Positions 4,069-53,116 are shown, numbered from the stretch's first letter. The stretch is 64,000 bases of DNA from Candidatus Woesearchaeota archaeon (GCA_964417865.1 CAYQJI010000001.1:14492-78491); one strand, 5' to 3'. Program-made: numbers and translations. Notes: generated by a model from the letters alone, not told the origin.

Positions 4069-5004
4069 TTACCTTTTAGAAACAAATTTTGAAAAAGAAT
4101 CTTGCATTAAATTTATCTCTTTTTTTACACTTTCTAAATTTTGACCATAACTCCCTATCTTTTCTAAAATTGATAATTGTAATTTTTCAATTATATTTTC
4201 TATTTTTCTTAATCTTTCATCAATCATTCCTAATTTTGATTTTAAAATACTTAATTCATTAGAAAAAGAATTATTTTCATTTTGAATCTTTTTAATTTTT
4301 TCTGAGAATATCTGATTAGCAATTTCTATAATATTATCAGTATTCATAATTTGGGTATCATTACTTGTTGTTGATGAAAAATCGTTTTGATATTGGGGGT
4401 AATCTAGAGAGTCGGATTGATAATCTCCATAGCTGTTACTATAATTATATTGTTCTTCTCTAGGGTAAGGTATACTTGAAGGTATTCCTTCATTAGCCTC
4501 CTCTTGAGAATAAACTTGTTGTTCAATATTCTCTGGATAATTTTCATATTCTGGATTTTGGGGATTTGGTGAATAAAACTTTTGATAAGGTGGATAAGGA
4601 GGATATTGTTCTTCTTGAGTGTATTGCTGTTGTTCTTGATTTATTCCTTGAGAAAATGAAGGTTCTTGACTAAAATAATAATCTGGTTTAATATTAAACT
4701 CTTTTTGAGAGATTTCTAAGGGGTTTATATCCTTGGGCTCTTCAATCTCTTTTTTTACTTCTTTTTTTACTTCTTCTTGATTTGGTATTGGTATATTAGG
4801 CTCTTCTGGTTCTTCTCCGTCCATCATAGAAGGTTGTAACTCTTCATCTTCTCCAAACTCGGATATTGCACTTTTTATTTCTGCTTGTTTCATAGCTTCA
4901 TCTATATCTTTTGGAGTTACACCTGATTCAGACAAAATCTTTTTTATTTCTTCATCAGATTTTCCTTCTTTTTTTAGATTTAATACTTGATCTAGATATC
5001 CCAT
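4069..5004 (-). CDS. hypothetical protein, N-terminal helical domain, Q/Y/P-rich low-complexity linker, C-terminal coiled coil
   Basis: Composition and heptad pattern. Architecture is paralogous to 58135..58785. Confidence 0.35.
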   Translation of the reverse strand: MGYLDQVLNLKKEGKSDEEIKKILSESGVTPKDIDEAMKQAEIKSAISEFGEDEELQPSMMDGEEPEEPNIPIPNQEEVKKEVKKEIEEPKDINPLEISQKEFNIKPDYYFSQEPSFSQGINQEQQQYTQEEQYPPYPPYQKFYSPNPQNPEYENYPENIEQQVYSQEEANEGIPSSIPYPREEQYNYSNSYGDYQSDSLDYPQYQNDFSSTTSNDTQIMNTDNIIEIANQIFSEKIKKIQNENNSFSNELSILKSKLGMIDERLRKIENIIEKLQLSILEKIGSYGQNLESVKKEINLMQDSFSKFVSKR

Positions 5005-5005
5005 A

Positions 5006-5398
5006 TTATTTTTTTATATTTAAATTAGGAGAACCCTCTTTTTTAATTTTTTCTTCTTGAAAATATCTTTCCAATTCTTTTTTTGTAACTAATTCTAATG
5101 GATTAAACATTTTTGCATGCCTATAAAGAATTTCTATATCTTCCTTTTTTGCAAATTTTGAAAATTCTGAAGAGATTATTTCTAAAAATTGAGAAATACT
5201 TTTTACCTCTTCTTTTAATTTTTCCAATTCTTTTTTTAAATCCAAAATTCTTAAAGAAGTTGAATCTTTTAATTCTAACAGGTTTTGATTTAAAAGGAAA
5301 ATTTGATCTTTGATAATTCTTTCTTTTTCTTCAATATTCCTTATTTTAGAATTTAATAAAGAAAAATCTTCTTTAATAAATCCAGGGTTGTTTTCCAT
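5006..5398 (-). CDS. hypothetical coiled-coil protein
   Basis: 130 aa, heptad-rich, 1-bp spacing to neighbouring gene (operon). Paralogous to 57750..58133. Confidence 0.35.
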   Translation of the reverse strand: MENNPGFIKEDFSLLNSKIRNIEEKERIIKDQIFLLNQNLLELKDSTSLRILDLKKELEKLKEEVKSISQFLEIISSEFSKFAKKEDIEILYRHAKMFNPLELVTKKELERYFQEEKIKKEGSPNLNIKK

Positions 5399-5478: not shown

Positions 5479-7821
5479 ATGGTAGAAAAAAAAGAATTGA
5501 AAAAAGAGGATTCTTCAACAAATAACAAGGAAAATAATATAGAAAACCCTTTATCTGCATTATATTCTTATGAAGTGAGGAAAGAAGGGGGAGAGGATAT
5601 TCTTTATATTAATTATCTTGGTTCTCCTTATATTCCAAGCATAGCAGATTATTCAGAAGTAATGAATAAGGTTATAGATATTTTATTAGAGGCTCCTAAT
5701 GTTTCTAGAATAATCTTAAGTCAGCAAAAAAACTATAACTATGATTTTCAAGAGACAAAAGCTTTGATAGAATTATCTCAATTTTATAATTATTTAGTCA
5801 AACAAGAGAAAATCCTTTCTATAAACAAAATTTCTCCTTTAAACACCAATTTGTTTACAGAGAGGTATAATCAGTTATTCAAATTTTTAGTTTTATTAAA
5901 AAAAGATCCTGTTTCTTCTTTTTTTGAATTAAAAAAAATAATTATAGAGAATAAAATAAAATTAGAAAAAACAGATTTATTTTCAAAACAAGATATTGAA
6001 AATTATCTTTTCCTTTTAAATAAAATTTTATCCCTTATGGAAAATTTATACATAATCCAAAAGTTATCCCCTTATTTTGATTCTTATAAAAATGGGGAAA
6101 GAGAAATTTACAATTTAATTTTTAAACCTGATATTATCCCAAATTTTACCTTAACAAGATTAATTTCCGATATTCCAAAAGATGCTGAAATAATTGATCA
6201 ATATACAATAGGGGAAGATGAAGATACTTCTGTTGTGACAATTTTAAAGAATAAACACGAAACAACACTCTTTTATCATTTAATACCCCCTGAAAATTCA
6301 TTAGAAGAAGAACAAATTTTACTTTTAGAACTTGCTAGAGAAGTTTTAATGGAACATCAGCCAAAAGCAGAAGAATTTACAGATGTTTCGAGAATAAGGC
6401 AAGTTTTTTTCAATATTTCAAAAGATTTATTGCAAGATTTATCCCAAGCTAAAAATATAACATTAGATTATTCTATCTTAAACAAATTAGCTTCTATTCT
6501 TGTTAGACAAACAATTGGTTTTGGTTTAATTGAGGTTTTATTACAAGACAAAAAAATACAAGATATAATGCTAAATTCACCAATCCCAAAAACTAACATT
6601 TTTATAAAACATGAAGATTATAACGAGTGTTTAACTAATATTTTGCCAAGTCAATCAGATGTTGATTCTTGGGCTGCTAAGTTTAGGATGATCTCTGGAA
6701 GACCTTTAGATGAGTCAAACCCTATATTAGATACTCAATTAGAAATAGGGAAAATAAGAGCGAGAATTGCTATAATACAAAATCCCTTATCTCCTGATGG
6801 AATAGCTTATGCAATAAGGAAACATAGAGAAGAACCTTGGACATTGCCTTTATTCATACAAAACAAGATGATTAATTCTTTTACTGCTGGATTATTAAGT
6901 TTCTTAATTGATGGTGGAAGAACTGTTTTAATTGCAGGTACAAGAGGATCTGGCAAATCTTCTCTTTTAGGAAGTTTAATGTTAGAGATACTCCCAAAAA
7001 ATAGAATTATTGTTGTTGAAGACTCTTTGGAATTGCCTGTAGAATCTTTAAGAGAATTAGGCTTTAATATTTTAAGAATGAAAGTGAGATCTGCTTTATT
7101 AACAAACACGACAGAAGTTTCTGCTGACGATGGAATAAGAACAAGTTTAAGATTAGGAGATTCTTGTTTAATTGTTGGAGAAGTTAGAAGTGTTGAAGCT
7201 AAAGCTTTGTATGAAGCAATGAGAGTGGGAGCATTAGCAAATGTTGTTGCAGGTACAATTCATGGTGCTTCTCCTTATGCTGTTTTTGATAGGGTTGTGA
7301 ATGATTTAGAAGTTCCTACAACTAGTTTTAAGGCAACTGATATAATTGTTATTTGTAATCCAATAAAAAGTGCAGACGGTTTACATTCTAAAAAGAGAGT
7401 TGTACAGGTTTCAGAAGTTAGAAAACATTGGGTAAATGATCCTGTTTCTGAAAAAGGTTTTGTTAATCTTCTTAATTATAATATTGAAAAAGATGAATTA
7501 GAGATAACTCCTGATTTAATCAACGGAGATAGTGAAATTATAAAGGAGATCGCTTCAAATGTTCATGATTGGGTTGGTGATTGGGATGCTGTTTATGACA
7601 ATATTCTTTTAAGAGCAAAGATAAAGCAAGAATTAGTAGACTCTGCAGAAAGAATAAAAAATAACAAACTTTTAGAAGCTAAATTTAATGTGCTTGCAAA
7701 TCAAGCATTTCATGAAATTTCTGATAAAGTAAGAGAAGAAGAAGGAAAACTCTCTTCAGAAAAAGTTTTTTCATTATGGAAAAAATGGCTTGATAATCAA
7801 ATTTCTTTGAATAATTTCTAA
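5479..7821 (+). CDS. type II/IV secretion-system ATPase (archaeal FlaI/TadA/PilB family) with long N-terminal extension
   Basis: Walker A GTRGSGKSSL, Walker B IIVVED, Asp/His boxes. Followed by a FlaJ-like membrane gene and a pilin cluster. Confidence 0.8.
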   Translation: MVEKKELKKEDSSTNNKENNIENPLSALYSYEVRKEGGEDILYINYLGSPYIPSIADYSEVMNKVIDILLEAPNVSRIILSQQKNYNYDFQETKALIELSQFYNYLVKQEKILSINKISPLNTNLFTERYNQLFKFLVLLKKDPVSSFFELKKIIIENKIKLEKTDLFSKQDIENYLFLLNKILSLMENLYIIQKLSPYFDSYKNGEREIYNLIFKPDIIPNFTLTRLISDIPKDAEIIDQYTIGEDEDTSVVTILKNKHETTLFYHLIPPENSLEEEQILLLELAREVLMEHQPKAEEFTDVSRIRQVFFNISKDLLQDLSQAKNITLDYSILNKLASILVRQTIGFGLIEVLLQDKKIQDIMLNSPIPKTNIFIKHEDYNECLTNILPSQSDVDSWAAKFRMISGRPLDESNPILDTQLEIGKIRARIAIIQNPLSPDGIAYAIRKHREEPWTLPLFIQNKMINSFTAGLLSFLIDGGRTVLIAGTRGSGKSSLLGSLMLEILPKNRIIVVEDSLELPVESLRELGFNILRMKVRSALLTNTTEVSADDGIRTSLRLGDSCLIVGEVRSVEAKALYEAMRVGALANVVAGTIHGASPYAVFDRVVNDLEVPTTSFKATDIIVICNPIKSADGLHSKKRVVQVSEVRKHWVNDPVSEKGFVNLLNYNIEKDELEITPDLINGDSEIIKEIASNVHDWVGDWDAVYDNILLRAKIKQELVDSAERIKNNKLLEAKFNVLANQAFHEISDKVREEEGKLSSEKVFSLWKKWLDNQISLNNF

Positions 7822-7876
7822 TTTTCTAAACATTTATTAATCTTTTTTCTTTTTTATTCTTATATAAAGAGAGATC

Positions 7877-10051
7877 ATGGAAGACAAAAAAATAGATATT
7901 CATGAGATAATTGAGAAACATTCTCAAAGATTACAAAAAGATTTAGACTCTTTTAATAGTATAAAAAAATCTTCTTATAGCAAATCTTATGAATCTTTTA
8001 AAAAAGAAATAAGTCCAGAACCTTCTAATTATGAAAAATGGTGTATTGCTTTAGGTCAAATCATAAAACTAAAAATCTCAAAAAAAGAGGAAGAAGAAAT
8101 TCAAAAAAAATTAGATATAGCTAATTTAGATATAGAACCTTGGCATACTGTTACATTAGCATTTACTTCTTTTCTATTAATCTTTTTTTTAGGATTAATT
8201 TTCTGTTTTGCTCTCTCATATCTAACTGGTAGTGCTTTTCCTGCTGGTCTTTTTATTATGATATGTATTGTTGGAGTTTTTTCTTATCATTTTTTAAGAA
8301 ATTATCCTGATAGAGTTGCTAATAAATGGAGATTAAAAGCTTCTTCACAGATGGTTCCTGCTATTCTATATGTTGTTATCTATATGAGACATACTTCTAA
8401 TTTAGAAAAAGCTATCTCCTTTGCATCAGAACATTTGGAATATCCTTTAAATTTAAATTTTAAAAAAATTTTTTATGATGTTGAAATAGGAAAATTTTCA
8501 ACTATCAAAGAAAGTTTAGATAATTACCTTTCTAGATGGAGAGACTATTCTCCTCAGTTTATTGAATCATTCAATCTCATTGAGAGCAGTTTGTTTGAAC
8601 CTAATGAAGAAAAAAGAATTGACATATTAGAAAAATCTCTACAATTAGTTTTAGATGGCACTTATGATAAAATGTTAAAATTTACTCATGAAGTTAGGAG
8701 TCCATTGACTAATGTTTATATGTTAGGAGTCATTTTACCAACTCTTGCTATTGCTTTATTGCCTATGGCAAATATACTCTTGCAGAACCAGTTGAAAACC
8801 TCTCATGTTTTTGTTTTATTCAATTTAATAGTTCCTTTCCTTGTTTTTTATCTTACTGATAAAATTTTATTTTTGAGACCTGGTGGTCATGGTGAAGTGT
8901 CTTTATTAGAAAAAAATCCCAAATATTATTTATATAAATCCAAAAAACCAATTATTAAAGCTTTTCTTATCTCTTTCCCATTTATTCTTTTAGGGTTAAT
9001 TCCTTTAATTTTTCAATATACTCCTTTGCCTTTATGGCTTAATCTTCAGAGAGATTATACTTTTTCTCAGTTGGGACTTCCTTTTTTTGGAGAAGATACT
9101 TATTTTTTTGGTATAACTGAAGTTGATGGTGTAATTAAAGGGCCTTATGGTATTGGTTCTATGATTTTAAGTATATTTTTTATTTTTGGAGTAGCTTTAT
9201 TTTTTTATATTTCTTTTAAAGGAAAAACTTCTGAATTAAAAAAAGAGAGGGAAAAAACAAAAGAGTTAGAAATTGAATTTAATAATTCTTTATTCCAATT
9301 AGGAAATAAACTTGGAACTGGAACACCCTTGGAGATAGCATTTGGAAAAGTTGCAGAAGACACAAAAGGGTTAAGGACAGAGGATTTTTTCAAAAAAACT
9401 AATTATAATATAACCCAAATGGGAATGAGTGTGGAACAAGCCCTATTTGATAGTAAAAGAGGGGTTTTAATTTATTATCCTTCAAGTTTGGTTTATACAA
9501 GTATGAAAATTCTTGTAGAATCCTCTAAGAAAGGTTCAACAATTGCTGCTTTAAGTTTAGTTAATCTTTCCCAATATGTAAAGAATTTTTATAAGATAAC
9601 TGACAGACTTAAAGATCTGCTTTCAGAAATTATCTCAGATATGAAGAGTAATATGACTTTTTTAGCTCCTATACTCTCTGGAATAATTGTTGGATTATCT
9701 ATGATGATGAGCTCTATTTTAAGTTATATTTCTACTATCAGTAATAATTTTTCAGATGTTTCTTCTTCGCAATTTGGGAATATAGGTTCAATATTAAAAA
9801 TGTTTGAAGGGACAGAAACAATAGCCCCTTATTTCCTGCAAATAATTGTGGGAATTTATCTTATTGAAATAGTTTTTATTTTAACAAAGACTCTGGTTGC
9901 TATAGATTCTGGAGAAGATAAATTAGATCAGATTTATCTAACAGGGATGAATTTAAGGAGAGCAATATTTCTTTATTCTATAATTGCGATAGGCTCTTCT
10001 ATAGCTTTATCATTCTTAAGTTCTTTTGTTCTTTCTGGTTTGATTCAATAA
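7877..10051 (+). CDS. FlaJ/TadC-like pilus assembly platform membrane protein
   Basis: 724 aa polytopic membrane protein immediately downstream of the ATPase. This is the canonical archaeal type-IV pilus gene order. Confidence 0.55.
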   Translation: MEDKKIDIHEIIEKHSQRLQKDLDSFNSIKKSSYSKSYESFKKEISPEPSNYEKWCIALGQIIKLKISKKEEEEIQKKLDIANLDIEPWHTVTLAFTSFLLIFFLGLIFCFALSYLTGSAFPAGLFIMICIVGVFSYHFLRNYPDRVANKWRLKASSQMVPAILYVVIYMRHTSNLEKAISFASEHLEYPLNLNFKKIFYDVEIGKFSTIKESLDNYLSRWRDYSPQFIESFNLIESSLFEPNEEKRIDILEKSLQLVLDGTYDKMLKFTHEVRSPLTNVYMLGVILPTLAIALLPMANILLQNQLKTSHVFVLFNLIVPFLVFYLTDKILFLRPGGHGEVSLLEKNPKYYLYKSKKPIIKAFLISFPFILLGLIPLIFQYTPLPLWLNLQRDYTFSQLGLPFFGEDTYFFGITEVDGVIKGPYGIGSMILSIFFIFGVALFFYISFKGKTSELKKEREKTKELEIEFNNSLFQLGNKLGTGTPLEIAFGKVAEDTKGLRTEDFFKKTNYNITQMGMSVEQALFDSKRGVLIYYPSSLVYTSMKILVESSKKGSTIAALSLVNLSQYVKNFYKITDRLKDLLSEIISDMKSNMTFLAPILSGIIVGLSMMMSSILSYISTISNNFSDVSSSQFGNIGSILKMFEGTETIAPYFLQIIVGIYLIEIVFILTKTLVAIDSGEDKLDQIYLTGMNLRRAIFLYSIIAIGSSIALSFLSSFVLSGLIQ

Positions 10052-10100
10052 CTTTAGATTAATTAAATAAATTTATTAATTGGTTTTTATTTAATTTTTT

Positions 10101-10253
10101 ATGAAAAAAAGAGCAGTAATGTCTGACTTTATAATTTGGATTTTAATTGCGTTATTAATCTTATCTGTATTATTTATCTTTTATTTCATTTCAAATGGAA
10201 AGTTAAATAATCTTTCAGATTCAATTAAATCCTTATTCTCTTTTGGCAAATAA
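10101..10253 (+). CDS. small pilin-like protein (class III signal peptide-like)
   Basis: 50 aa, MKKRA then a hydrophobic stretch (VMSDFIIWILIALLIL). Not in the ORF track (short). Confidence 0.3.
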   Translation: MKKRAVMSDFIIWILIALLILSVLFIFYFISNGKLNNLSDSIKSLFSFGK

Positions 10254-10254
10254 A

Positions 10255-10380
10255 ATGGAAATAACATTTGAGCAAATTGTTAAGATTATTTTAGGCCTTT
10301 TGATAGTTGCTGCTATAGGTTTTGGAATCTATCTATCAAAAAATTATCTCTCCAGTTTTTTTAATAATCTCCCAACTTAA
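10255..10380 (+). CDS. small single-TM protein
   Basis: 41 aa, hydrophobic core IVKIILGLLIVAAIGFGIY, tightly packed after the previous small ORF. Confidence 0.2.
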   Translation: MEITFEQIVKIILGLLIVAAIGFGIYLSKNYLSSFFNNLPT

Positions 10381-10414
10381 AATAATAATTAAATAAAAGT
10401 AAATTTATCTTAAT

Positions 10415-10906
10415 ATGAAATTAAATAAAAACAAGAAAGCAGATTTTTTAATTAAAAATGTTTTAGAAATAGTTCTTGCAGTTATTGGAGTCATGCTTCT
10501 TATTTTTTTAGGTGTTAAATTAATTCCTTTAATTTTTCCTTCATCTGTTGAGAAAGCAGAATCAAGTTTAAACTTGTTATTTGGTCTAATTAATCAGAAC
10601 CTAAATCAAGAGAGTGTCAATGAAGTTAAGGTATTCATTCCAAACCCCAAAGGTTGGTATTTTTTTGGAACTTTAAAAGGTGATTCTTCTTCTCCTATTA
10701 AAGAATGTAGAGAAAATCCTTGCATCTGTATATGTTCCGAAGGATTTATATGTACTGAAAAAGCTAAAGGTGTTTGTTACCCTTTTGATTTTGATGATTA
10801 TACATTATCCTACAATTTGGGTGCATTAGAAATTTCTTCTAATGGTCTTTTCCTTAAAGTTTCTTTTGATAGAACAAATAAAATAATAAATATAGCTAAA
10901 AAATGA
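10415..10906 (+). CDS. pilin-like protein (class III signal peptide), Cys-rich
   Basis: N-terminus KNKKA/DFLIKNVLEIVLAVIGVMLLIF, 10 cysteines (CICICSEGFIC). Confidence 0.5.
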   Translation: MKLNKNKKADFLIKNVLEIVLAVIGVMLLIFLGVKLIPLIFPSSVEKAESSLNLLFGLINQNLNQESVNEVKVFIPNPKGWYFFGTLKGDSSSPIKECRENPCICICSEGFICTEKAKGVCYPFDFDDYTLSYNLGALEISSNGLFLKVSFDRTNKIINIAKK

Positions 10907-11043
10907 ATTTCAATAATTTTATGGATTATTTTTATTGGATAGTGGTTTTTTTATTAGTTTTAGGAGGACTCTATTTTTTATTTAAATATCTAAATATATT
11001 TTAATATAATAAAAGATAAGTTATTTTAATTATAAAATAAAAA

Positions 11044-12126
11044 ATGAAAAGAAATAAATCAAAAATGAAAAAAGGAGAACTTACAACAGAGAACATTGTT
11101 ACTTTAATTGTTTTAATAATCGGATTTATAATTCTTTTGGCCTTTTTAGTTGGCTTTAATTATGAAGAGGAGGTTAATCAAATTGTTTGTAAAACTTCTG
11201 TTTTATTAAAAGCAACTTCTAAACAAATTTCAGGGTTAGAAAAATTATCTACTTCTTTAAATTGTCATACTAAATACCTTTGTATAAGTTCTGATAATAA
11301 ATGTGATAAGGACCTATCAATAAGTAATGTAAAAAAAGTTTCTTCTAGTGATGAAATATTTAAAATTCTGGCTGATGAACTTGGAAATTGTTGGTCTATG
11401 TTTGGGGAAGGCAAATTGGATTATTTTTCCAAATTTAATATAAAAACAGATCTTTATTGTTCTTTATGTTCTTTAATATATTTTGATAAAGATTTAAATG
11501 AAATTAAAGATGAAAATTCTTATTTTGTGAAAGATGAAAATGGGAAAGTTATTGGATTAAATCAAACAAAATTTTACATTTATTTAGCCAAAACAAAAGT
11601 TGGAAAAAGTAATGAAAATTATTTAACTTACCTTTATGGAATTTCTTCATTCTCTCAATTCAATAATTATCTAACAAATGGATTTATTCCAACAGAAAAT
11701 TCAAATATAGAATCACAAAAAAATTTAGAAGTTGAAAAATTGAATAATATTCCTTCTTTAGCTCCTCTAAACTTTTCAAAAAATTATTTTGTTCTATTAG
11801 GCGCTATGGACAATAGTGATCTCCTTAATATTCTTTCTACTTATGGAGGACCTGCCACTGGGTCTTTATTGGGTTTAGCTGCGGGTTTTATTATCTCACC
11901 ACCGTCTGCCATTATGTGGGGAGCACTTTTTGTAGGAGGAGCATTAATAGGACAAGGCGTGCAATCAACAAGTAATTTTTTAATTAATGATTTACTCTTT
12001 TCAAAAAAAAATCAAGAGACAAATAAAGAAGAGAGTAGTTTAGTTTTCTTTGGGCCTAATTTAGTGGAAGCTAATGCGAAATCATTAAGCAACATTAAAT
12101 GTTCTGAAATTAATACTATCGCTTAA
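11044..12126 (+). CDS. pilin-like protein (class III signal peptide), Cys-rich, with C-terminal hydrophobic anchor
   Basis: KMKKG/ELTTENIVTLIVLIIGFIILLAF, NCW motif, C-terminal TM (LLGLAAGFIISPPSAIMWGALFVGGALIG). Confidence 0.5.
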   Translation: MKRNKSKMKKGELTTENIVTLIVLIIGFIILLAFLVGFNYEEEVNQIVCKTSVLLKATSKQISGLEKLSTSLNCHTKYLCISSDNKCDKDLSISNVKKVSSSDEIFKILADELGNCWSMFGEGKLDYFSKFNIKTDLYCSLCSLIYFDKDLNEIKDENSYFVKDENGKVIGLNQTKFYIYLAKTKVGKSNENYLTYLYGISSFSQFNNYLTNGFIPTENSNIESQKNLEVEKLNNIPSLAPLNFSKNYFVLLGAMDNSDLLNILSTYGGPATGSLLGLAAGFIISPPSAIMWGALFVGGALIGQGVQSTSNFLINDLLFSKKNQETNKEESSLVFFGPNLVEANAKSLSNIKCSEINTIA

Positions 12127-12180
12127 TCTTTTTATCATTTATTAGTTAATTTTATAATATTCTTTTTCCATTTATTTAAT

Positions 12181-12642
12181 ATGATAAAAAATAAAAAAGG
12201 TGAAGGGAATGATTTATTTTTGAATAACTTTGTTGATATAATTTTAGATTTTATTTTTTTTGGAGTTCTTATACTCTTTTTATTAAATCAAAATTATAAA
12301 ATTTCTTTTTTAGAATTAAATTATGCTAAGAATATAGCTTTGTTAATAGATAATGCTAAACCTGGAATGACTATTACTTTTGATTTGTCTGATGCAGTAA
12401 AAATTGCTAAATCCAATGGTGTAGATATTAATGATATGATAAAAATTCAAGATAATAAAGTTTTAGTTACTCTTGCAAGGGGTAAATGGAGTTCTTATTC
12501 TTTTTTTAATAATATCAATATAGTTAGTTACTATCCTCTTTATAATACAAATAAAAAGGGTTATACAGGAGAATTTGTCTTTAAGATAGGAGAGTATATT
12601 GAAAATGAAGAGTTAAATCTTGAAAATGAAAAACTAAATTAA
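12181..12642 (+). CDS. pilin-like protein (class III signal peptide-like)
   Basis: KNKKG then hydrophobic helix FVDIILDFIFFGVLILFLL. Confidence 0.4.
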   Translation: MIKNKKGEGNDLFLNNFVDIILDFIFFGVLILFLLNQNYKISFLELNYAKNIALLIDNAKPGMTITFDLSDAVKIAKSNGVDINDMIKIQDNKVLVTLARGKWSSYSFFNNINIVSYYPLYNTNKKGYTGEFVFKIGEYIENEELNLENEKLN

Positions 12643-12654
12643 ATTAAAATAAAG

Positions 12655-13338
12655 ATGAAAATTTTTTTGATTAATAAAAAAAACAAAAGAGGAAATGTTT
12701 TTTCTATGTGGTGGTTTGTAATGGCAGTAATTGTCGCCGCAGTAATTTATATAATGGTTAATATGTTTTTTCAATCTCCCATAGATATTAGAGATATGGA
12801 GGTTAATAGTCTGATAAATCAGGTTGCAGATTGCATTTATTATGCTGGGCAATTTAACAATAATATTAATTTTATTTCTGAAAGTTCTTTAAGGCAAAAG
12901 GATATAAGTTCAGAAAATAAACTTATTAAAAATGAGCCAGAAATAGATAAAGAGTTCTTAATAAAAAATTGTCATTTAAATTTATTTGATGAAAATTATC
13001 CTAAAGAAAATCAGTATTTTATTCAAGTTAATATTTACAAATTGGACACAGCGTCAAATTCATTAAGTTATAAAGATAATCTTTTAGTAAATTATATTGC
13101 AGGAAATGAAATTTTTAAAGATTTTTGTGATTTACAATTACAAAAAAATTTTTATCCTTCATCTAATGTTTTAGAAGAAATTAAATACGAAGATAATATT
13201 TATAAGACTCTTCCATTCTGTAAAAATAAAAAATTTTATGCATTTACAAGGCAAATTATGGGGGATAATTCAAGAAATGAATATATTATAGAAATTATTG
13301 GAGGTATAAAAAAATTAAATGAGAATATTAAAGTATAA
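12655..13338 (+). CDS. pilin-like protein (class III signal peptide)
   Basis: KNKRG/NVFSMWWFVMAVIVAAVIYIMV. Confidence 0.5.
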   Translation: MKIFLINKKNKRGNVFSMWWFVMAVIVAAVIYIMVNMFFQSPIDIRDMEVNSLINQVADCIYYAGQFNNNINFISESSLRQKDISSENKLIKNEPEIDKEFLIKNCHLNLFDENYPKENQYFIQVNIYKLDTASNSLSYKDNLLVNYIAGNEIFKDFCDLQLQKNFYPSSNVLEEIKYEDNIYKTLPFCKNKKFYAFTRQIMGDNSRNEYIIEIIGGIKKLNENIKV

Positions 13339-13612
13339 AAAAGCTCAGATAGGGTATACTCTTAATTGGGGTGCAGCTTTAATATTAATTTTTATTATAT
13401 TATTAATATTTGTAATTGTTTCACTTTTATTTATTAATCATTCAAATTTAGTAAAATTTTTCGAACCAAAGAATACTCTAATAGAGGTTCAAAATCAACA
13501 TTTAATCTCAAAAAGTGAAATTTCTCTATCAGAAGTTACTTCAATGAATACAAAGGATTTTGATTCATATCATTCAAAAATTATAAATTTAATAAAATTA
13601 GAAAATGATTAA
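13319..13612 (+). CDS. small pilin-like protein
   Basis: KKAQIG then ALILIFIILLIFVIVSLLF. Shares the KKAQ(I/L)G leader with the next gene. Confidence 0.45.
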   Translation: MRILKYKKAQIGYTLNWGAALILIFIILLIFVIVSLLFINHSNLVKFFEPKNTLIEVQNQHLISKSEISLSEVTSMNTKDFDSYHSKIINLIKLEND

Positions 13613-14507
13613 AAATAAAAAAGCTCAATTAGGCATAAATATTTTTGTTTTAGGAACACTTATAGTTTGTGTTCTTGCTTTATTCAGTTTTAGCACTAAT
13701 TCTAATAAAGTTAAATTTAATTTTTATGGAATTTCTGCTTTAGAAGAAGAAAATACAAAAATTGAAAATGAACAATATCAACAATACTTAAAACTAAAAG
13801 AGAACATCCAAGAGTTTAAATGTTCTTATCAAGATTTATGCCAATGCCCTAAAGTAGATTCTCCTTATAATAAGTTAATTATCAACAATATGGATATTAA
13901 CGATTTAATAAGTAATGTTGACTGTTCAAATAAAGAACTTCTTAAAAATAATTTATTTAATTTAATGAAATCTATTTCAGATACTAATGCCGAGTATGTT
14001 GCAAGTCAATGTAAATGTAAAGATAATTGTAAAAATTATGCTGGACTTCTTGTTGATGAAGCTTGCAAAGATGATAATAACAAGATAGATCCTTATTTAT
14101 TATTGTCTATAATGATGCAAGAATCTGATTGTGTGGCCTTAGCTATAAATTCAAATAAAGAGAGTAATGGGAAAGTTTCTTCTTCTGACTGTGGTTTAAT
14201 GCAGATAAATACAAAAAGTCAAGAGGATTGTAAGGACCTTATTCAAAATCCAGCCTCTTCTATAAAAAGAGCAGTATCTCTTCTAAAAGATAAATTTGAT
14301 AAAGAATGCATTTTTACAGGGGGTAAATATAAAGATGGAGGCTTTACATGTGATGCTTCTACATTGATAATGCATTCTGATTGTACAAGAAGTGTTAAAT
14401 ATTCTGGTTGGGCTTCTAAAATAAGAGGTTATAATGGTTGGGGTGCAGGAGGTTCACCTTACTATACAGAACTTGTTTTAGAGAGATATTTAGAATTAAA
14501 AGGATAA
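13605..14507 (+). CDS. pilin-like protein fused to family-1 lytic transglycosylase (SLT/goose-lysozyme-like) domain
   Basis: KKAQLG + hydrophobic helix. SLT motifs: catalytic ES motif (SIMMQESDC...DCGLMQIN), NPASSIKRAVSLL, GYNGWGAG. Confidence 0.65.
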   Translation: MIKNKKAQLGINIFVLGTLIVCVLALFSFSTNSNKVKFNFYGISALEEENTKIENEQYQQYLKLKENIQEFKCSYQDLCQCPKVDSPYNKLIINNMDINDLISNVDCSNKELLKNNLFNLMKSISDTNAEYVASQCKCKDNCKNYAGLLVDEACKDDNNKIDPYLLLSIMMQESDCVALAINSNKESNGKVSSSDCGLMQINTKSQEDCKDLIQNPASSIKRAVSLLKDKFDKECIFTGGKYKDGGFTCDASTLIMHSDCTRSVKYSGWASKIRGYNGWGAGGSPYYTELVLERYLELKG

Positions 14508-14678
14508 AAAAATAAAATGACAGTTGAAGAAATTAAATCTTTTGCAAATAATATAAAAGTTGATTATAATTCTGAGTCAAATATATTATTAACAAATAAT
14601 AATCAAAAATAATTCTAAAAACCTTAAATAACTTCAAATTAACAAAAGCTTTTTAAATACTAAAAGATTATAAAAGAT

Positions 14679-15221
14679 ATGAAGTTAGAAAAAAAAATAA
14701 ACAAAAGAGGAGACCAAACACCTTGGATCTTAATCTCTTTGATTTTAGCACTTGCTGTTGGTGTATTTTTTATATATAACTTTTTTAGCTATAATCAATT
14801 ATTTTCTGCTTCAAATATTAATGATATAACTGATCTTTGTGTTAACACATATACAAAACCAGAAGAATTTGTTTCTAAAGGTTTACCTGCTTTTACAATA
14901 GAACAAGCAGGCAAAAAAATTGTTTATTCTAAAGGATTTACTTGTTATTATTTATCTAAACTAAGCACAAATAATCCAGCCTATAGTGCAGTTAGTGGAA
15001 GGAATAATTTAGATGAGATATGGCTCGCATGGGATGATAAAATTAAAATCATGGAGCCTAATAAAGATGAAACTTTCAGAAAAGAGGAGTGTGAGAAAGA
15101 TCCCAAGTTAATTTATGTTTATTCTGCAAAAGAAGAAAAAAATAAGTATACCTTAGAGGTTACAATATGTAACCCTGGGATAGCTCCTGCTCCTGCTGGA
15201 GGACATAATTCAGAAGAATAA
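14679..15221 (+). CDS. pilin-like Cys-rich protein (class III signal peptide)
   Basis: NKRG/DQTPWILISLILALAVGVFFIY, near-identical leader to 45258. Conserved GFTCYYLSKLSTNNP motif. Confidence 0.5.
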   Translation: MKLEKKINKRGDQTPWILISLILALAVGVFFIYNFFSYNQLFSASNINDITDLCVNTYTKPEEFVSKGLPAFTIEQAGKKIVYSKGFTCYYLSKLSTNNPAYSAVSGRNNLDEIWLAWDDKIKIMEPNKDETFRKEECEKDPKLIYVYSAKEEKNKYTLEVTICNPGIAPAPAGGHNSEE

Positions 15222-15358
15222 TTTTTCTCCATTCATTCTTTTTTAATAATCTTTTAAATTTATTATTTTTCTCTTTTATTATCATTAATTCTTTTTCTTA
15301 AATCTCTCTTTTTTTCTCTTATTTTAACAACTTTTTTAAATAACTAATTCTTTTTTAA

Positions 15359-16741
15359 TTGATGAAATCTTTAATGATAAAAGATAAAAGAGGTATGGAT
15401 ACAATGGCCTTTATTCTTGTTGCATTAATTCTTGCAGCAATAGTTCTTATTGCTTTGTCAGGAGGATTACAAATTGTTATAGGAAAATTAAAATCCGCTT
15501 TAGGAGGGCCTTCAAATGTGGATTTAATCAAAGGATTTTGTCAATTATCATGTAATCTCGGATTTACTAATGATTATTGTTATAAACCTAGAACATTAAC
15601 AGATAATTTAGGAAATAAACTTAATGATGTAACTTGCTATTTCCTTTCTAGATATAAGCCGAGTTATGAGATTGATTCTTGTCCTAAGATAACTTGCTCT
15701 GTTGAATTTAATAATAACATAAATTCCAAAGAGCAATTTAATCAATTACAATGCACAAAAAACAAATTATATTTACAATCTTTTATTCAAAATTCTGAAA
15801 AAGAATATACTTTGTTGTCAAAAGAATGTTCAAATTTCCTTGAAAAACCTCTAATAATTTCTAAAGATGAATTGAACCTTGATCCAACTCTTGAAAAATC
15901 TCTTAACAATTATATTTACTATTCTACAAATGCAGAATGGGTTGATAACTTTAATAAAGATTTACTTATCAATGCAATTAATGTTGCAACAGGAAAAAAA
16001 TCAAGCCAATTTTACCAAGATTTAGACCAGACTAATCCAGAAGCTGTAAAATTTTGTTATGAACCTATTAATTCATTAAATGGATTAACTGGATATGCTT
16101 ATTTAAAATCAAATTCAAAACTAATGAATAATGTTATTGATGCTTATCAAATTAATCAAAATGATTTTGAGCGTTGTGGCGTTTATTACTATTTTGTTGA
16201 TAAAACAAATGTAAGGTATGGAGGTCTATTATCTTATTACAAAACTTATAAATCTGCTGAAAATAGAGGGAGAGATTCCGATTCGTTTAAAGAGAATATA
16301 ATAAAACCTTTTGGTTGTATCAATAATGATTATAATAACTATCTCTCTCTTAGATATAATCAAAATGACCCAACAGGAAAGTATATCCAATTTTTAGATG
16401 AAAACAATAATCTTATTACTTTAGATTTTCCGTGTGAACCAGATATCTCAAGTTTTAAAGTAGACGAGGTCTGTAAAGCCTTTTATGATGAATTAGTTCA
16501 GAAATTTTCATTAGATCCTTATTTAGAGAATATTGAAACCTTTGATTTTTGTTCTAAAAAAATTAACCTTCTGGATTCCTCTGGAAATGAGATTTGTTCA
16601 GGATGTACCTGTTTTTATGTGCTTAATAATCTTAAAGAAGAAGATTTAACAAAAAGAGGTTATTTAAATGTCGCTAACAACGGAGTAACCATCTCAAATT
16701 TAGAGATTATAAAGTCTTGTAACCATGAATCTAAAACATAA
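15359..16741 (+). CDS. pilin-like Cys-rich protein (class III signal peptide), 460 aa
   Basis: KDKRG/MDTMAFILVALILAAIVLIAL, VTCYFLSRYKP motif shared with paralogs, more than 20 Cys. Confidence 0.5.
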   Translation: MMKSLMIKDKRGMDTMAFILVALILAAIVLIALSGGLQIVIGKLKSALGGPSNVDLIKGFCQLSCNLGFTNDYCYKPRTLTDNLGNKLNDVTCYFLSRYKPSYEIDSCPKITCSVEFNNNINSKEQFNQLQCTKNKLYLQSFIQNSEKEYTLLSKECSNFLEKPLIISKDELNLDPTLEKSLNNYIYYSTNAEWVDNFNKDLLINAINVATGKKSSQFYQDLDQTNPEAVKFCYEPINSLNGLTGYAYLKSNSKLMNNVIDAYQINQNDFERCGVYYYFVDKTNVRYGGLLSYYKTYKSAENRGRDSDSFKENIIKPFGCINNDYNNYLSLRYNQNDPTGKYIQFLDENNNLITLDFPCEPDISSFKVDEVCKAFYDELVQKFSLDPYLENIETFDFCSKKINLLDSSGNEICSGCTCFYVLNNLKEEDLTKRGYLNVANNGVTISNLEIIKSCNHESKT

Positions 16742-16743
16742 AA

Positions 16744-16857
16744 ATGTCAGATTACGGATTTCCTGAAAAAAGAAACAAAAGAAAAGAAAAAAGAAAAGAA
16801 AAAAAGAAACACCCTTATAAGCAGGGTGGAGCTCAAAGAACTTTTGAAATAAAATAA
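16744..16857 (+). CDS. small highly basic peptide (37 aa), unknown
   Basis: MSDYGFPEKRNKRKEKRKEKKKHPYKQGGAQRTFEIK. Intergenic position, not in ORF track. Confidence 0.15.
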   Translation: MSDYGFPEKRNKRKEKRKEKKKHPYKQGGAQRTFEIK

Positions 16858-16903
16858 AAGATAAAATAAATTATTTTATAAACTTATTTTTCTTTTTTTT
16901 AAA

Positions 16904-17758
16904 ATGTATGAAATAATATTTTTATTAATCTTAAGTTTTTGTTATCTTATATTTGCAGTTATTCAAGATTTTAAATCAAGAGAGATTGCAGATTGGCTTA
17001 ATTATTCTTTGATAATCTTTGCTTTAGGTTTTAGGTTTTTTTATTCTTTGTTCAATGAAAATAATTTTAATTTTTTTATCCAAGGATTTATTGGATTTCT
17101 TATTTTTTTAGGATTAGCTAACCTGTTTTATTATTCAAGACTTTTTGCAGGAGGAGATGCAAAACTTATGATGGCTTTAGGAGCAATTTTGCCATTAGAT
17201 TATTCTTTTAGTTCAAATCTCCTTTTATTCCTTAATTTTTTATTTTATTTTTTTATAGCTTCTTTAATTTATGTTTTAATTTCAAGCGTTTTTCTTACAT
17301 TAAAAAATTTTAAATCCTTTAAGATTAAATTTATTAAAGAAGTTAAATTTCAAAAAAGATTGATTATATTATCTTGGTTATTCTTTTTCTTATCAACAAT
17401 TTTAAACTTCGTCTTTTTATCTAAATTCAATTTCGTTTTTTTAGGATTTTTTATTTTAGTTTTAACTTATTCTTATATTTATTCAAAATCTTTAGATGAG
17501 TGTTGTATGATTAAAGAAGTTTTAACTAAAAATTTAACAGAAGGAGACTGGCTTTATAAGGATGTGAGATTAAAAAAAGAAACTATCAAATCTAAATGGG
17601 AGGGTTTAACAAAAGAAGAAATAAGAAAAATAAGATTAGAACTAAAAAAAGTAAAGATAAGACAAGGAATTCCTTTTTCCCCTACTTTTTTATTAGGCTT
17701 TTTGCTTTTTGTGATATCTTATTTTTTTAAAATTAATTTATGGAATCCTCTTTGGTAA
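16904..17758 (+). CDS. prepilin/preflagellin peptidase (A24 family, PibD/FlaK-like)
   Basis: Polytopic membrane protein with the catalytic A24 motif LFAGGDAKLMMALGA and an N-terminal Asp (IQDFKS). Confidence 0.7.
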   Translation: MYEIIFLLILSFCYLIFAVIQDFKSREIADWLNYSLIIFALGFRFFYSLFNENNFNFFIQGFIGFLIFLGLANLFYYSRLFAGGDAKLMMALGAILPLDYSFSSNLLLFLNFLFYFFIASLIYVLISSVFLTLKNFKSFKIKFIKEVKFQKRLIILSWLFFFLSTILNFVFLSKFNFVFLGFFILVLTYSYIYSKSLDECCMIKEVLTKNLTEGDWLYKDVRLKKETIKSKWEGLTKEEIRKIRLELKKVKIRQGIPFSPTFLLGFLLFVISYFFKINLWNPLW

Positions 17759-18364: not shown

Positions 18365-18640
18365 TTAAGAACCAAAAGCTCTTCTCATATCTATAACCTG
18401 TATTGAGCTTACTCCTTCTAGTTCTCTTATCTTTTCTTCAAGTTTCTCTAATTCTACCTCTTCAGACCAGGCAAAAAAAGCAATTATCGCTTTTAATCCA
18501 AAAGCAATAGGTTCTTCTTCAAAATTGCAATTTTTTCCACCAAGACTTTCTACTAACTCTTTTGTTTTTTCTTTTATAGTTTCTAAATCTGTTTCAGGCG
18601 AATTGGGTAAAATCTTTATTTTTACTGCTGCGATTCCCAT
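18365..18640 (-). CDS. ef1b: translation elongation factor aEF-1 beta
   Basis: 91 aa, MGIAAVKIKILP...AFGLKAI...IQVIDMRRAF, typical aEF-1beta. Confidence 0.8.
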   Translation of the reverse strand: MGIAAVKIKILPNSPETDLETIKEKTKELVESLGGKNCNFEEEPIAFGLKAIIAFFAWSEEVELEKLEEKIRELEGVSSIQVIDMRRAFGS

Positions 18641-19444: not shown

Positions 19445-20527
19445 TTGTTATTAATCTTAATAACTGCTAATTTTGTGAGTGCCCAAAATTCAACTTGTAT
19501 TTATTTTTTTTATGGAGATGGTTGCCAACATTGTGCTAAAGTTGAGTCATTTATAAACAACCTAGAATTATATTCCCAATCTTCTCTTGATATTCATAGA
19601 TTTGAAATTTATAACAATCGTTCAAATATGCTTTTATTGAATCAATATTTTGATGTTTATAATATATCTAATTCCGAAAGAGGAATACCTGCCGTTTTAA
19701 TTGGCGAAAGTTATCTTATAGGAGATAGCCCAATCTCGGAGAATCTTATTGAATTAATAGGACAGAATCATGGAGCAGAATGCCCTGATTTTCAAACAAC
19801 AAATGGGGAAGGCAAGACAGGAAATACTTCCCCCATGGAAAAATTAAATTCATTATCCATCTTAACCGTTGTGGGAGCAGCACTGGTAGATTCAATAAAT
19901 CCATGTGCTATTGCCGTTTTGTTAATTTTAATGAGTGCTTTGTTAGTTGCAGGAGATAAAAAGAAAGCAATTAAAGCAGGTTTTGCTTTTACTATTTCAA
20001 TCTATATCGCTTATTTTTTGTTTGGATTGGGATTATTTTCAGCGATTCAAGTTTCAGGTCTTTCTTATTGGTTCTATAAAATAATTGGAGTTTTGGCAAT
20101 AGTAATAGGATTAGCAAATATCAAAGATTTCTTTTGTTATGGTGGCGGAGGTTTTGTTATGGAAATCCCAAGAGGCTGGAGACCCAAATTAAAAGAAATG
20201 TTAGGGAAAGTTACAACCCCTTTAGGAGCGTTTTTAATGGGTTTTGTAGTTTGCTTATTTGAGTTGCCTTGCACAGGCGGACCTTATATTGTTATCTTGG
20301 GGTTATTAGCAGATAGAATGACTATGTGGGCTTCAATTCCTCTTTTGTTATTGTATAATTTAGTATTTGTATTGCCCTTAATTATAATTACTCTGTTAAT
20401 TTATTTTGGCTTTGCTAATGTAGAAAAAGCAACAAAATGGAAGGACAATAATTTAAGAATTTTACACTTAATTGCAGGAGTAGTTATGTTGGCTTTGGGA
20501 ATCTTGATTACTTTTGGATTTGTTTAG
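19445..20527 (+). CDS. thiol:disulfide oxidoreductase fusion: extracytoplasmic thioredoxin-like domain + CcdA/DsbD transmembrane domain
   Basis: Signal/TM then CxxC (DGCQHCAK). Membrane domain has the two conserved Cys in INPCAIAVLL and ELPCTGGPY. Confidence 0.65.
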   Translation: MLLILITANFVSAQNSTCIYFFYGDGCQHCAKVESFINNLELYSQSSLDIHRFEIYNNRSNMLLLNQYFDVYNISNSERGIPAVLIGESYLIGDSPISENLIELIGQNHGAECPDFQTTNGEGKTGNTSPMEKLNSLSILTVVGAALVDSINPCAIAVLLILMSALLVAGDKKKAIKAGFAFTISIYIAYFLFGLGLFSAIQVSGLSYWFYKIIGVLAIVIGLANIKDFFCYGGGGFVMEIPRGWRPKLKEMLGKVTTPLGAFLMGFVVCLFELPCTGGPYIVILGLLADRMTMWASIPLLLLYNLVFVLPLIIITLLIYFGFANVEKATKWKDNNLRILHLIAGVVMLALGILITFGFV

Positions 20528-20531
20528 TAAT

Positions 20532-21404
20532 TTATGCACTTGCTAATTTAATTAAACCAAGCCACCTATTTTCTCCCAAGTTTAAATCTTGCCCTGCTAA
20601 TTCACAAGGAACACTATTTGTTGAACAATGTTTCTCTATAAAATTATGTTGAATTGTTAATCCAACCATGATGATTGGAGCAGACCAGAGAGCTTTTAAT
20701 CCTCTAAAATCATGCACTCTATCCTTAATTTTCATAAACACCGTTTCAATTTTATAGTTATGTACCTTTGTTCTTCGTACATTTTGTATTTTATGTTCCA
20801 CTACTAAACCTCCAAGCTTATTAGAATAGAATAGTTTTTTAAAAGCACGAGGGTAAAATTGTGCAGAATCTGTTTGTATAAACTTTGGCTTCCCCTTACC
20901 TACTGCTTTATTTATAAAAATTTTGGCTTCTTGGATTGTTGTTTGAGTAGAATAATGCACTCCTGTAATTAATCTAGTATTCCAGTCTACACAAGCCCAG
21001 AAATTATCTTTATGCCCCAATCTATTAATTTCGGTTTCATCTGCATAGAAAGAATCTCCAAGGTTATATCCTAATTTTTCTACAAAATTATGTACTTTCA
21101 AACTATATTTTCGCACCCAATCTAAAATAGAATTATGAGATACTTTGGTTTTGAAATGTCTATTTAATTGATTTCTCATTTTTCTACTTGAAAGATTAGA
21201 TAAATACATATCTATAGATAAGGTAATTGTCTCAGATGAGAATCGCATTCTATAAAACCCTTCATCATTTGTAAAAAATTTGTGACAAGATTTACAATAA
21301 TATTTTTGTATTTTCCCTCGGTGTTCTGTTTTTCTAAATCCTTTCTTTAGAAAACTTGTACTTGAACAATGTTTGCACTTTATCATACCTATATTCAGGT
21401 ACAT
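20532..21404 (-). CDS. IS6-family DDE transposase with N-terminal zinc finger (true start probably Met at 21386: MIKCKHC)
   Basis: CKHCSS...YYCKSCHKFF zinc finger. FYADETEI...WACVDWNTRLITG matches the IS6 DDE core. The first ATG lies inside the promoter repeat. Confidence 0.7.
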   Translation of the reverse strand: MYLNIGMIKCKHCSSTSFLKKGFRKTEHRGKIQKYYCKSCHKFFTNDEGFYRMRFSSETITLSIDMYLSNLSSRKMRNQLNRHFKTKVSHNSILDWVRKYSLKVHNFVEKLGYNLGDSFYADETEINRLGHKDNFWACVDWNTRLITGVHYSTQTTIQEAKIFINKAVGKGKPKFIQTDSAQFYPRAFKKLFYSNKLGGLVVEHKIQNVRRTKVHNYKIETVFMKIKDRVHDFRGLKALWSAPIIMVGLTIQHNFIEKHCSTNSVPCELAGQDLNLGENRWLGLIKLASA

Positions 21405-45217: not shown

Positions 45218-45257
45218 TCATGAATAATCTTTTAAACTCTTTTTTATTTCTTTTTAT

Positions 45258-53026: not shown

Positions 53027-53116
53027 TGGCTCTGAGGAGGATTTAACTCCCGACCTCTGCCTTTCTCAATATTAATCATTCATGAGAGCAGCGCTCTAAC
53101 ACTGAGCTACAGAGCC
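53027..53116 (-). tRNA. tRNA-Met/Ile2 (CAU) with about 18-nt intron 3' of the anticodon (elongator type)
   Basis: Acceptor GGCUCUG/CAGAGCC, D GCUC/GAGC, anticodon stem CUGCU with loop CUCAUG. Intron AAUGAUUAAUAUUGAGAA. 3' stem GGCAG, T-stem GGGAG/CUCCU, A73. Confidence 0.7.

Follow-up and report, generated by a model that had tools for sequence, protein, structure and literature searches.

Between positions 5479 and 17758 of a 64,000-nucleotide stretch of archaeal DNA (the window, from whose first letter all positions are counted), an uninterrupted row of genes on the + strand encodes what we interpret with high confidence as a type IV filament system resembling type IV pili (T4P). The locus contains genes for a FlaI/TadA-type ATPase, a polytopic membrane protein of 724 amino acids, nine proteins whose leaders are class-III-like and an A24 prepilin peptidase, and further encodes one or two tiny leaderless helical proteins. 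Comparison with related genomes leads us to propose, with moderate confidence, that it represents a conserved, near-core filament machine of Pacearchaeota that displays peptidoglycan hydrolases, probably to contact bacterial walls. An initial annotation of the window had described the same gene row as a complete type-IV-pilus-like locus of a DPANN-like archaeon, and both the row and the completeness of the gene set (ATPase, membrane protein in the platform position, class-III-leader proteins and dedicated A24 peptidase) were borne out. It had missed the SLT domain of the protein encoded at 13605, as well as the Amidase_2 and VanY domains of sister loci, and these domains point to bacterial peptidoglycan. 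Genes are referred to below by their first position.

The organism is an archaeon, since the window encodes Rad51/RadA (23218-24246), the transcription factor TFB (TFIIB, 46420-47334) and an OB protein resembling RPA. The locus proteins have homologs in metagenome-assembled genomes named Candidatus Pacearchaeota, Nanoarchaeia or 'Woesearchaeota', and the sequences place the organism in the Pacearchaeota/Nanoarchaeia group. Its genome has a GC content of ~26%, and an identical contig is present in GCA_030154545.1 and in JGI 3300033757.

The first gene of the row had been assigned to the FlaI/TadA family of ATPases. Its product matches Pfam T2SSE (PF00437) at 1.4e-14, above the gathering score, and its best relatives among solved structures are Archaeoglobus fulgidus GspE (afGspE, 2oap, 5e-28), CpaF (9e-25) and FlaI (1e-15), with far weaker matches to VirB11 (1e-6) and PilT (5e-5). 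The NCBIfam models for FlaI (1.2e-37) and TadA (6.7e-36) both match far under their equivalog cut-offs. On the basis of these structural relatives and sub-cut-off scores, we assign the protein to the archaeal/Tad branch of assembly ATPases and not to archaellum FlaI. It carries a long conserved N-terminal extension, a Walker A motif (G487TRGSGKS), a Walker-B-like motif (L564IVGEVR) and a His box (G592TIHG), and has a median identity of 68% to 66 orthologs. At the other end of the row, Peptidase_A24 (PF01478) matches the last gene product at 4.9e-13, and D22 and A82-G-G-D85 (AGGD85), which hold the two catalytic aspartates, are at least 95% conserved in 47 orthologs (median identity 49%), in agreement with the annotated A24 peptidase with a GGD motif; NCBIfam FlaK matches it at 6e-11, under the cut-off. 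Past the A24 domain, peptidase residues ~195-284 form a further conserved region with E199, G214-D215, Y218, W232 and G234.

The product of the second gene had been annotated as a FlaJ/TadC-like platform protein. Pfam and NCBIfam searches returned no T2SSF match for it, and at a threshold as loose as E <= 10 PF00482 was found neither in this protein nor in the 24 orthologs scanned, the scans giving only noise such as VIT1 and DUF2207_C. Comparison with solved structures likewise yielded no sequence match, even with a profile of 25 sequences, and an hhalign comparison of its N-terminal and C-terminal halves, seeking the T2SSF duplication, was negative (probability 0.3%). An AlphaFold2 model of moderate quality (predicted local distance difference test, pLDDT, 65.5) was matched by Foldseek to the cytoplasmic domains of EpsF and OutF with a probability of 0.97-0.98, a TM(target) of 0.66 and E-values of ~2. 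The predicted fold is similar to PilC, EpsF and SpoIIIAB, the resemblance being to PilC/GspF cytoplasmic domains. The gene adjoins or nearly adjoins the ATPase gene wherever a contig holds both, with at most a few variable open reading frames (ORFs) between them, and its product has a median identity of 59% to its orthologs. Because of the fold similarity and the adjacency to the ATPase, we accept this protein as a putative platform, an extremely divergent analogue of PilC/FlaJ/TadBC. By sequence, the annotated FlaJ/TadC-like assignment was not confirmed. Many of the sister loci (L004-L082) have at least one extra variable ORF (~150-340 amino acids, sometimes much larger) between ATPase and platform; the window has none.

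Relatives of the locus were found by a pattern scan with one genome per species, which gave 345 platform relatives, and 80 loci were analysed with 10-kb flanks. Operon content and order are strikingly conserved among them. The ATPase gene, often with one variable ORF next to it, is followed by the genes for the platform, the 50-amino acid pilin and the leaderless protein of ~54 amino acids, then by orthologs of 10415, 11044, 12181, 12655, 13319, 13605 and 15359, and finally by the peptidase gene. Each pilin-like family was found in 38-68 of 83 loci; the shortfall lies partly at contig ends, and the slots of 13319 (38 loci) and 15359 (43 loci) are often occupied by unlabelled class-III ORFs. 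The pilin families have median identities of 27-37% to their orthologs, and the machine proteins (68, 59 and 49%) are far more conserved. Since the pilin-like genes form separate orthologous families that occur in the same order across ~80 related genomes, the locus appears to be a machine shared throughout the lineage, whose minor-pilin-like proteins form a fixed and ordered set and not a swarm of paralogs. Other type IV filament machines have comparable sets of minor pilins or pseudopilins. Variation is concentrated in grafted modules and at the 3' end of the operon.

Class-III leaders were identified with a pattern of our own, in which K/R is followed by G/A and then by a hydrophobic run within the first residues. 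The pattern is present in seven of the eight non-overlapping ORFs of at least 90 amino acids between 10052 and 16800, compared with three of 54 elsewhere (Fisher p = 1.9e-6), and two of the latter three (36951 and 45258) belong to the satellite cluster described below. The leader architecture of the eighth ORF (12181) is visible in the consensus of its ortholog family, the 50-amino acid ORF at 10101 likewise has a class-III-like leader, and the predicted cleavage site is conserved within each ortholog family. Counting 10255 together with these, the annotated number of about ten consecutive pilin-like genes is therefore correct.

Their description as paralogs did not hold. All-versus-all BLASTP of the pilin-like proteins detected the pair 14679-45258 (7e-12, over ~160 amino acids), weakly the pair 15359-45258, and otherwise only N-termini. 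Together with orthology across the 83 loci, this rules out a recent paralog expansion as the source of the ten genes, which belong mostly to separate orthologous families. The nearly identical leaders noticed in 14679 and 45258 do belong to homologous proteins, and alignment with orthologs unites 14679, 15359 and 45258 in one family with a KRG(Q/D/E) leader, a helix G-LSTNAIILIILG and a small six-cysteine head. The TC(Y/N)(Y/F)LS motif that had been described as shared among the pilin-like proteins surrounds one of the six conserved cysteines of this family; it is present in these three members and in none of the other pilin-like genes. Similarly, the proteins had been called very cysteine-rich, which applies only to 13605 (5.0%), 15359 (3.9%), 45258 (3.8%) and 10415 (3.7%, with 1.0% in the rest of the window) but not to four pilin-like genes that encode no cysteine. 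Pfam searches with 27 members of the KRGQ pilin family recovered no pilin or archaellin family, only noise.

Several of the individual families have recognizable features of their own (hyphens in leader motifs mark the predicted cleavage site). The N-terminus of 10101 orthologs is conserved as KKG-(I/V)(I/V)S(E/D)YLPWLLIA, and the protein is a candidate Flp/EpdE-like filament subunit. The product of 10255 looks like a mature pilin N-terminus without a leader, and a protein at this position (~54 amino acids, MELTIEQLIKIILG...) is kept in ~60 loci; the ORF at 10903 is leaderless too. The 10415 family has the conserved pattern KPNSC..NC.CIC...C..G.C, and a cysteine pattern is also conserved in the 11044 family. 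The 12655 gene overlaps the 13319 gene by 20 nucleotides, which in turn overlaps the 13605 gene by 8 nucleotides. The 15359 family always occupies the place of the final pilin gene ahead of the peptidase, and its member in the window has a 330-amino acid cysteine-rich extension that is almost lineage-specific: among 169 phmmer matches in 1.84e9 representatives, all but two besides its own cluster cover only residues ~8-125. We consider the short KRGQ form a candidate major pilin.

The SLT domain (PF01464) is found at residues 157-232 of the 13605 protein (1.3e-8), and E173-S174, G197LMQ200, R274GYNGWG280 and Y287 are invariant in ten homologs. Judged by its sequence, which has the features of GH23 family 1, it is apparently an active lytic transglycosylase, and the AlphaFold2 model (pLDDT 70-95 in the core) has a lysozyme-like fold with a probability of 0.99. 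Most orthologs of 13605 are only ~95 amino acids long and amount to a minimal pilin without SLT; alignment of short and long forms identifies SLT as a clean loop insertion that separates the helix region from the conserved strands at the C-terminus. Orthologs with and without SLT thus set the module boundaries, as they do for the amidase on the 12655 scaffold described next, and on this ground both can be termed modular pilins. Full-length forms of the SLT pilin have 342 (P0121) and 335 (L001) amino acids. At 14505-14507 the window has TAA, and the otherwise identical contig L001 has TTA; this single-base difference could reflect either true polymorphism or an error in sequencing.

SLT occurs in 16 of the 83 loci and on at least three scaffolds, namely 13605-type, 12181-type (L032, L050, L070) and 12655-type (P0127, P0129) pilins. 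In loci without SLT, pilin orthologs of abnormal length were scanned for other grafts. Amidase_2 (2e-26 to 9e-20) was found in six loci on two scaffolds, inserted in 12655-type pilins (L021, L023, L043, L065, L067) and fused to a 13319-type pilin (L042), and VanY (5.5e-7) is fused to a KRGQ-type pilin in L071. On the 13605 and 12655 scaffolds, the modules are inserted cleanly, with the C-terminal strands of the pilin left in place. Of the 48 loci in which the stretch from platform to peptidase is complete, 15 have a pilin-hydrolase, and the amidase-pilin alone accounts for ~70 full-length protein-database clusters, annotated only as amidases from Nanoarchaeia. One conserved operon thus appears to have received murein hydrolases of three classes repeatedly, on five of its pilin scaffolds. 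SLT, Amidase_2 and VanY cleave the MurNAc-GlcNAc bond (with 1,6-anhydro formation), the MurNAc-L-Ala bond and the D-Ala-D-Ala bond (MurNAc, N-acetylmuramic acid; GlcNAc, N-acetylglucosamine), and these are features of bacterial murein, not of pseudomurein. Since the three bonds fit murein, murein would be the target, and the repeated grafts are the strongest functional clue, pointing to bacterial peptidoglycan. In the full-text literature searched, no relevant report of archaeal transglycosylases with a class-III leader or a link to pilins came up.

We infer from these sequences how a filament may form, which pilins may be major or minor, where the enzymes may be located and active, and what they may act on. 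The A24 peptidase (16904) would remove the short basic leaders of the pilin-like proteins, and a hexameric ATPase (5479) docked on the platform (7877) would extract the processed subunits from the membrane and polymerise them. The bulk subunits would most likely be the small ones, 10101 (Flp/EpdE-like) and/or the short KRGQ family (here 14679 and 15359), while 10415, 11044, 12181, 12655, 13319 and 13605 would form a fixed minor-pilin priming or tip complex. Minor pilins would carry grafted effector modules, SLT on 13605 here and SLT, Amidase_2 or VanY in sister genomes. The filament would then present peptidoglycan-cleaving enzymes at or near its tip, enabling the cell to attach to murein, thin it or pierce it, be it that of a bacterial partner or prey or of dead cells. 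Engagement of bacterial walls, whether by attachment, local thinning or penetration, or harvest of wall material, is the most economical reading. The initial annotation had suggested a surface filament with diverse decorations for host attachment; it is indeed plausible that the locus acts at the cell surface towards another organism, but the filament would carry a fixed orthologous set and not about ten diversifying paralogs. More tentatively, the minor pilins might serve as interchangeable murein-hydrolase carriers of a pilus that drills the walls of bacterial partners, lineage-wide in Pacearchaeota, a proposal we regard as possible though doubtful. If it is true, Pacearchaeota would be cross-domain episymbionts or predators of bacteria, with the pilus as their contact organelle.

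Several observations weigh against a filament that displays hydrolases to bacteria. No recognisable peptidoglycan hydrolase is encoded in 33 of the 48 complete loci, and for this reason hydrolysis cannot be the core function, which (adhesion, contact or uptake) must be more general. The stop codon at 14505-14507 cuts the last 35 amino acids, comprising the pilin-module strands, off the SLT pilin of the window, a loss that may impair its incorporation. None of the pilin folds was modelled with high confidence, since the SLT pilin has a pLDDT of only 53-74 in its N-terminal helix, for example, and the class-III leaders were judged by our own pattern only. Moreover, the hosts of cultivated DPANN have to date all been archaea (PMC11291902).

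The retention of the core operon in the 33 loci without a hydrolase would also be expected of a DNA-uptake (competence-type) or generic adhesion pilus, with the hydrolase modules as incidental lineage-specific additions. Organisms poor in nucleotide synthesis would gain from such uptake, scavenged nucleotides being mentioned in one study (PMC8204110), and Com pili consist of ~5 pilins and a minimal machine (PMC10790768). Nevertheless, Pfam and NCBIfam revealed no ComEA/ComEC-like or DNA-binding module in the locus, and the repeated independent grafting of three hydrolase classes onto five scaffolds argues for selection over accident, so that we consider this explanation quite improbable. The many distinct, conserved 'minor' subunits and the lack of an obvious abundant major pilin could instead indicate a bindosome or a pseudopilus like that of type II secretion systems, that is, a short envelope structure or a means of anchoring or export, whose hydrolases would serve to scavenge peptidoglycan fragments, amino sugars and amino acids of dead bacteria, with no attachment to a living host. 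In the Sulfolobus bindosome (Bas), functional non-structural proteins with class-III leaders need an ATPase/platform pair, and sugar-binding proteins with such leaders are assembled by BasEF; the ATPase of the window has a weak match to BasE (4e-18). Scavenging would suit Pacearchaeota, which have no amino-acid biosynthesis and for which dead-cell peptidoglycan has been proposed as a nutrient (PMC11537232). The BasE match, however, reaches 65 bits against a cut-off of 1000, Pfam identified no solute-binding domains among the locus proteins, unlike the sugar-binding cargo of Bas, and there is no uptake transporter in the operon. The conserved small Flp/EpdE-like and KRGQ-type subunits, for their part, suit filament building, and we regard a bindosome or pseudopilus as rather unlikely.

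Machine-associated hydrolases are common in bacteria, and the only NCBIfam match of the SLT domain is to IagB (2.4e-4), associated with type III secretion systems. It is therefore conceivable that the enzymes open the producer's own murein-like wall for the filament, like the transglycosylases of bacterial T4P and of type III and type IV secretion systems. Such remodelling seems very improbable here: archaeal peptidoglycan-type walls have been reported only in Methanobacteria and Methanopyri (PMC12352652), the scanned ORFs of the window (only part of the 64 kb) include no Mur-pathway gene, and most loci have no hydrolase at all. As for motility, FlaI and FlaK are the best NCBIfam matches of ATPase and peptidase, but at 129.8 bits against a cut-off of 550 and 42 against 330, respectively, and no FlaH, FlaF/G, FlaC/D/E/X or archaellin domain was detected in any locus protein. 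The missing components effectively refute an archaellum and led us to reject it.

The diversity of archaeal T4P is well charted (PMC4858521; bioRxiv 10.64898/2026.04.22.720090). By its architecture the locus is like system/clade 2 of PMC4858521, with an extended ATPase N-terminus, a single platform gene, large or giant adhesin-like proteins nearby and several pilins, including ones without a class-III motif; the fact that A. fulgidus GspE is the best solved relative of the ATPase is a further likeness to clade 2. Unlike charted archaeal T4P, its platform and all of its pilin families escape Pfam and NCBIfam models, and hydrolase-bearing pilins appear in neither of the two surveys. The cognate pilins of nanoarchaea could not be identified by Makarova et al. 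2016 (PMC4858521). Many pilin-like genes and a dedicated peptidase in one operon are also characteristic of the Epd pilus of Methanococcus maripaludis (an 11-gene cluster), and the very short head-less 10101 subunit is reminiscent of the Epd major pilin, which has no globular domain. In Epd (system 1), however, the platform is split in two genes instead of being encoded by one, and no sequence similarity was detected between the pilins of the two systems. The locus differs from the bacterial Tad/Flp pilus in that the 10101 family (KKG-IISEY) has three and not four residues before EY (G/XXXXEY); Pfam and NCBIfam gave no TadZ or secretin match in the locus, and its single platform gene contrasts with TadB plus TadC.

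The hydrolase-bearing subunits are most readily compared with bacterial modular pilins such as PilB (vWA) and PilC (lectin) of Streptococcus sanguinis (PMC8179133), in which a small pilin module likewise bears a grafted module; some of the grafts are inserted in a loop, as in GspK, and others are fused at the C-terminus. The present ones differ in being archaeal and in their modules, GH23 SLT, Amidase_2 and VanY, which are swapped among five scaffolds of the same operon. Large extracellular SLT proteins of Pacearchaeota and Woesearchaeota have been proposed to target bacteria (PMC8204110, PMC9723730), and archaeal peptidoglycan hydrolases kill bacteria (PMC12352652). The lineages, the presumed murein target and the ecological reading are the same here, whereas the reported proteins are giant or Sec/Tat-secreted and those of our loci are small, have class-III leaders and are built into a conserved pilus operon. 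There is also a parallel with episymbiotic Saccharibacteria from the candidate phyla radiation (CPR), ultrasmall host-dependent cells with a conserved T4P thought to mediate partner contact (PMC11623550). Theirs is a bacterial T4aP with PilB/PilT/PilC, no hydrolase pilins and a function shown experimentally, in contrast to the function deduced here.

Pacearchaeota are among the most widespread and smallest-genome archaea, and their partners and lifestyle have been called enigmatic (PMC11537232). In a cryo-electron microscopy study, He et al. assigned piliated ultrasmall cells to CPR bacteria, arguing that T4P components are 'missing in DPANN genomes' (bioRxiv 10.1101/2020.05.14.094862). Contrary to that statement, our results indicate that a full and highly conserved filament machine exists in Pacearchaeota, with a platform and pilins that standard domain models do not see. 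That murein hydrolases have been grafted time and again onto its pilins suggests bacteria as the partners of Pacearchaeota, and it would extend the idea of modular pilins to archaea and to cargo that degrades cell walls.

Features of the filament locus and of its satellite cluster in the window (aa, amino acids; ortholog counts refer to the 83 loci; hyphens in leaders mark the predicted cleavage site)
Position	Strand	Feature	Basis or characteristics	Orthologs
5479-7821	+	Assembly ATPase, FlaI/TadA/afGspE-type, 780 aa	Pfam T2SSE, PDB relatives, motifs	
7877-10051	+	Putative platform protein, 724 aa	Fold and position; ~9 transmembrane helices, two cytoplasmic helical domains	
10101-10253	+	Pilin-like, 50 aa	Leader MKKRA, then hydrophobic helix; no globular domain	68 loci
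10255-10380	+	Leaderless helical protein, 41 aa from ATG (45 aa from TTG at 10243)	MEITFEQIVKIILG...	
10415-10906	+	Pilin-like, 163 aa	Class-III-like leader; Cys 3.7%	62 loci
11044-12126	+	Pilin-like, 360 aa (family median 296)	Leader KKG-ELTT(E/Q)	67 loci
12181-12642	+	Pilin-like, 153 aa	Consensus K.G.IL.EN.IFIILN; no Cys	62 loci
12655-13338	+	Pilin-like, 227 aa	Leader KRG-N/DK..S.YWF	59 loci
13319-13612	+	Pilin-like, 97 aa	Leader KKA-QIG(E)T..W; no Cys	38 loci
13605-14507	+	Modular pilin, 300 aa	Class-III leader and helix, Cys-rich linker, SLT/GH23 domain (Pfam SLT)	
14517-14612	+	Orphaned C-terminal tail of SLT pilin, 31-aa ORF	DNA alignment with contig L001	
14679-15221	+	KRG(Q/D/E) Cys-knot pilin paralog, 180 aa	Homologous to 45258; rare extra copy	3 loci
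15359-16741	+	KRGQ pilin family member, 460 aa (family median 143 aa)	Six conserved Cys in family	
16904-17758	+	Class III signal (prepilin) peptidase, 284 aa	Pfam Peptidase_A24	
36951-38840	+	Satellite protein, 629 aa	Class-III-like leader	
38837-45217	+	Giant satellite protein, 2126 aa	Sec-like leader	
45258-46280	+	KRGE-family pilin paralog, 340 aa		

The satellite cluster (36951-46280) lies downstream of the main locus. The C-terminal domain of the 45258 protein shares homology with two repeats at the C-terminus of the giant protein (3.5e-33 and 1.2e-21). Pfam and PDB searches with the products of 36951, 38837 and 45258 gave no match except for sub-threshold hits to Gasdermin-B, which we treated as chance.

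Directly upstream of the ATPase gene, two divergently transcribed genes on the - strand (4069-5004 and 5006-5398) encode coiled-coil or low-complexity proteins of 311 and 130 amino acids without a family match, and the pair is conserved at this place in ~62 related loci. Their products might be accessories in the cytoplasm, unless the synteny is a generic one. A DsbD/SfLAP-like membrane protein (19445-20527), whose gene in most related loci lies downstream of the peptidase gene by a few genes, could be of use to the pilin heads, which are rich in disulfides. We left both the upstream pair and the DsbD-like gene out of the system, because aEF-1beta (18365-18640) and other housekeeping genes show just as much synteny. 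A DDE_Tnp_IS240-type transposase (8.8e-13) is encoded ~3 kb downstream of the locus, on the - strand at 20532-21404. Farther along the window, Rfam called a 90-nucleotide tRNA at 53027-53116 (- strand) that has no ARAGORN call and probably contains an intron, and an ORF at 49337-50218 has a match (1.1e-36) to the C-terminal domain of the large subunit of iron-only hydrogenase, an unusual feature for so reduced an archaeon.

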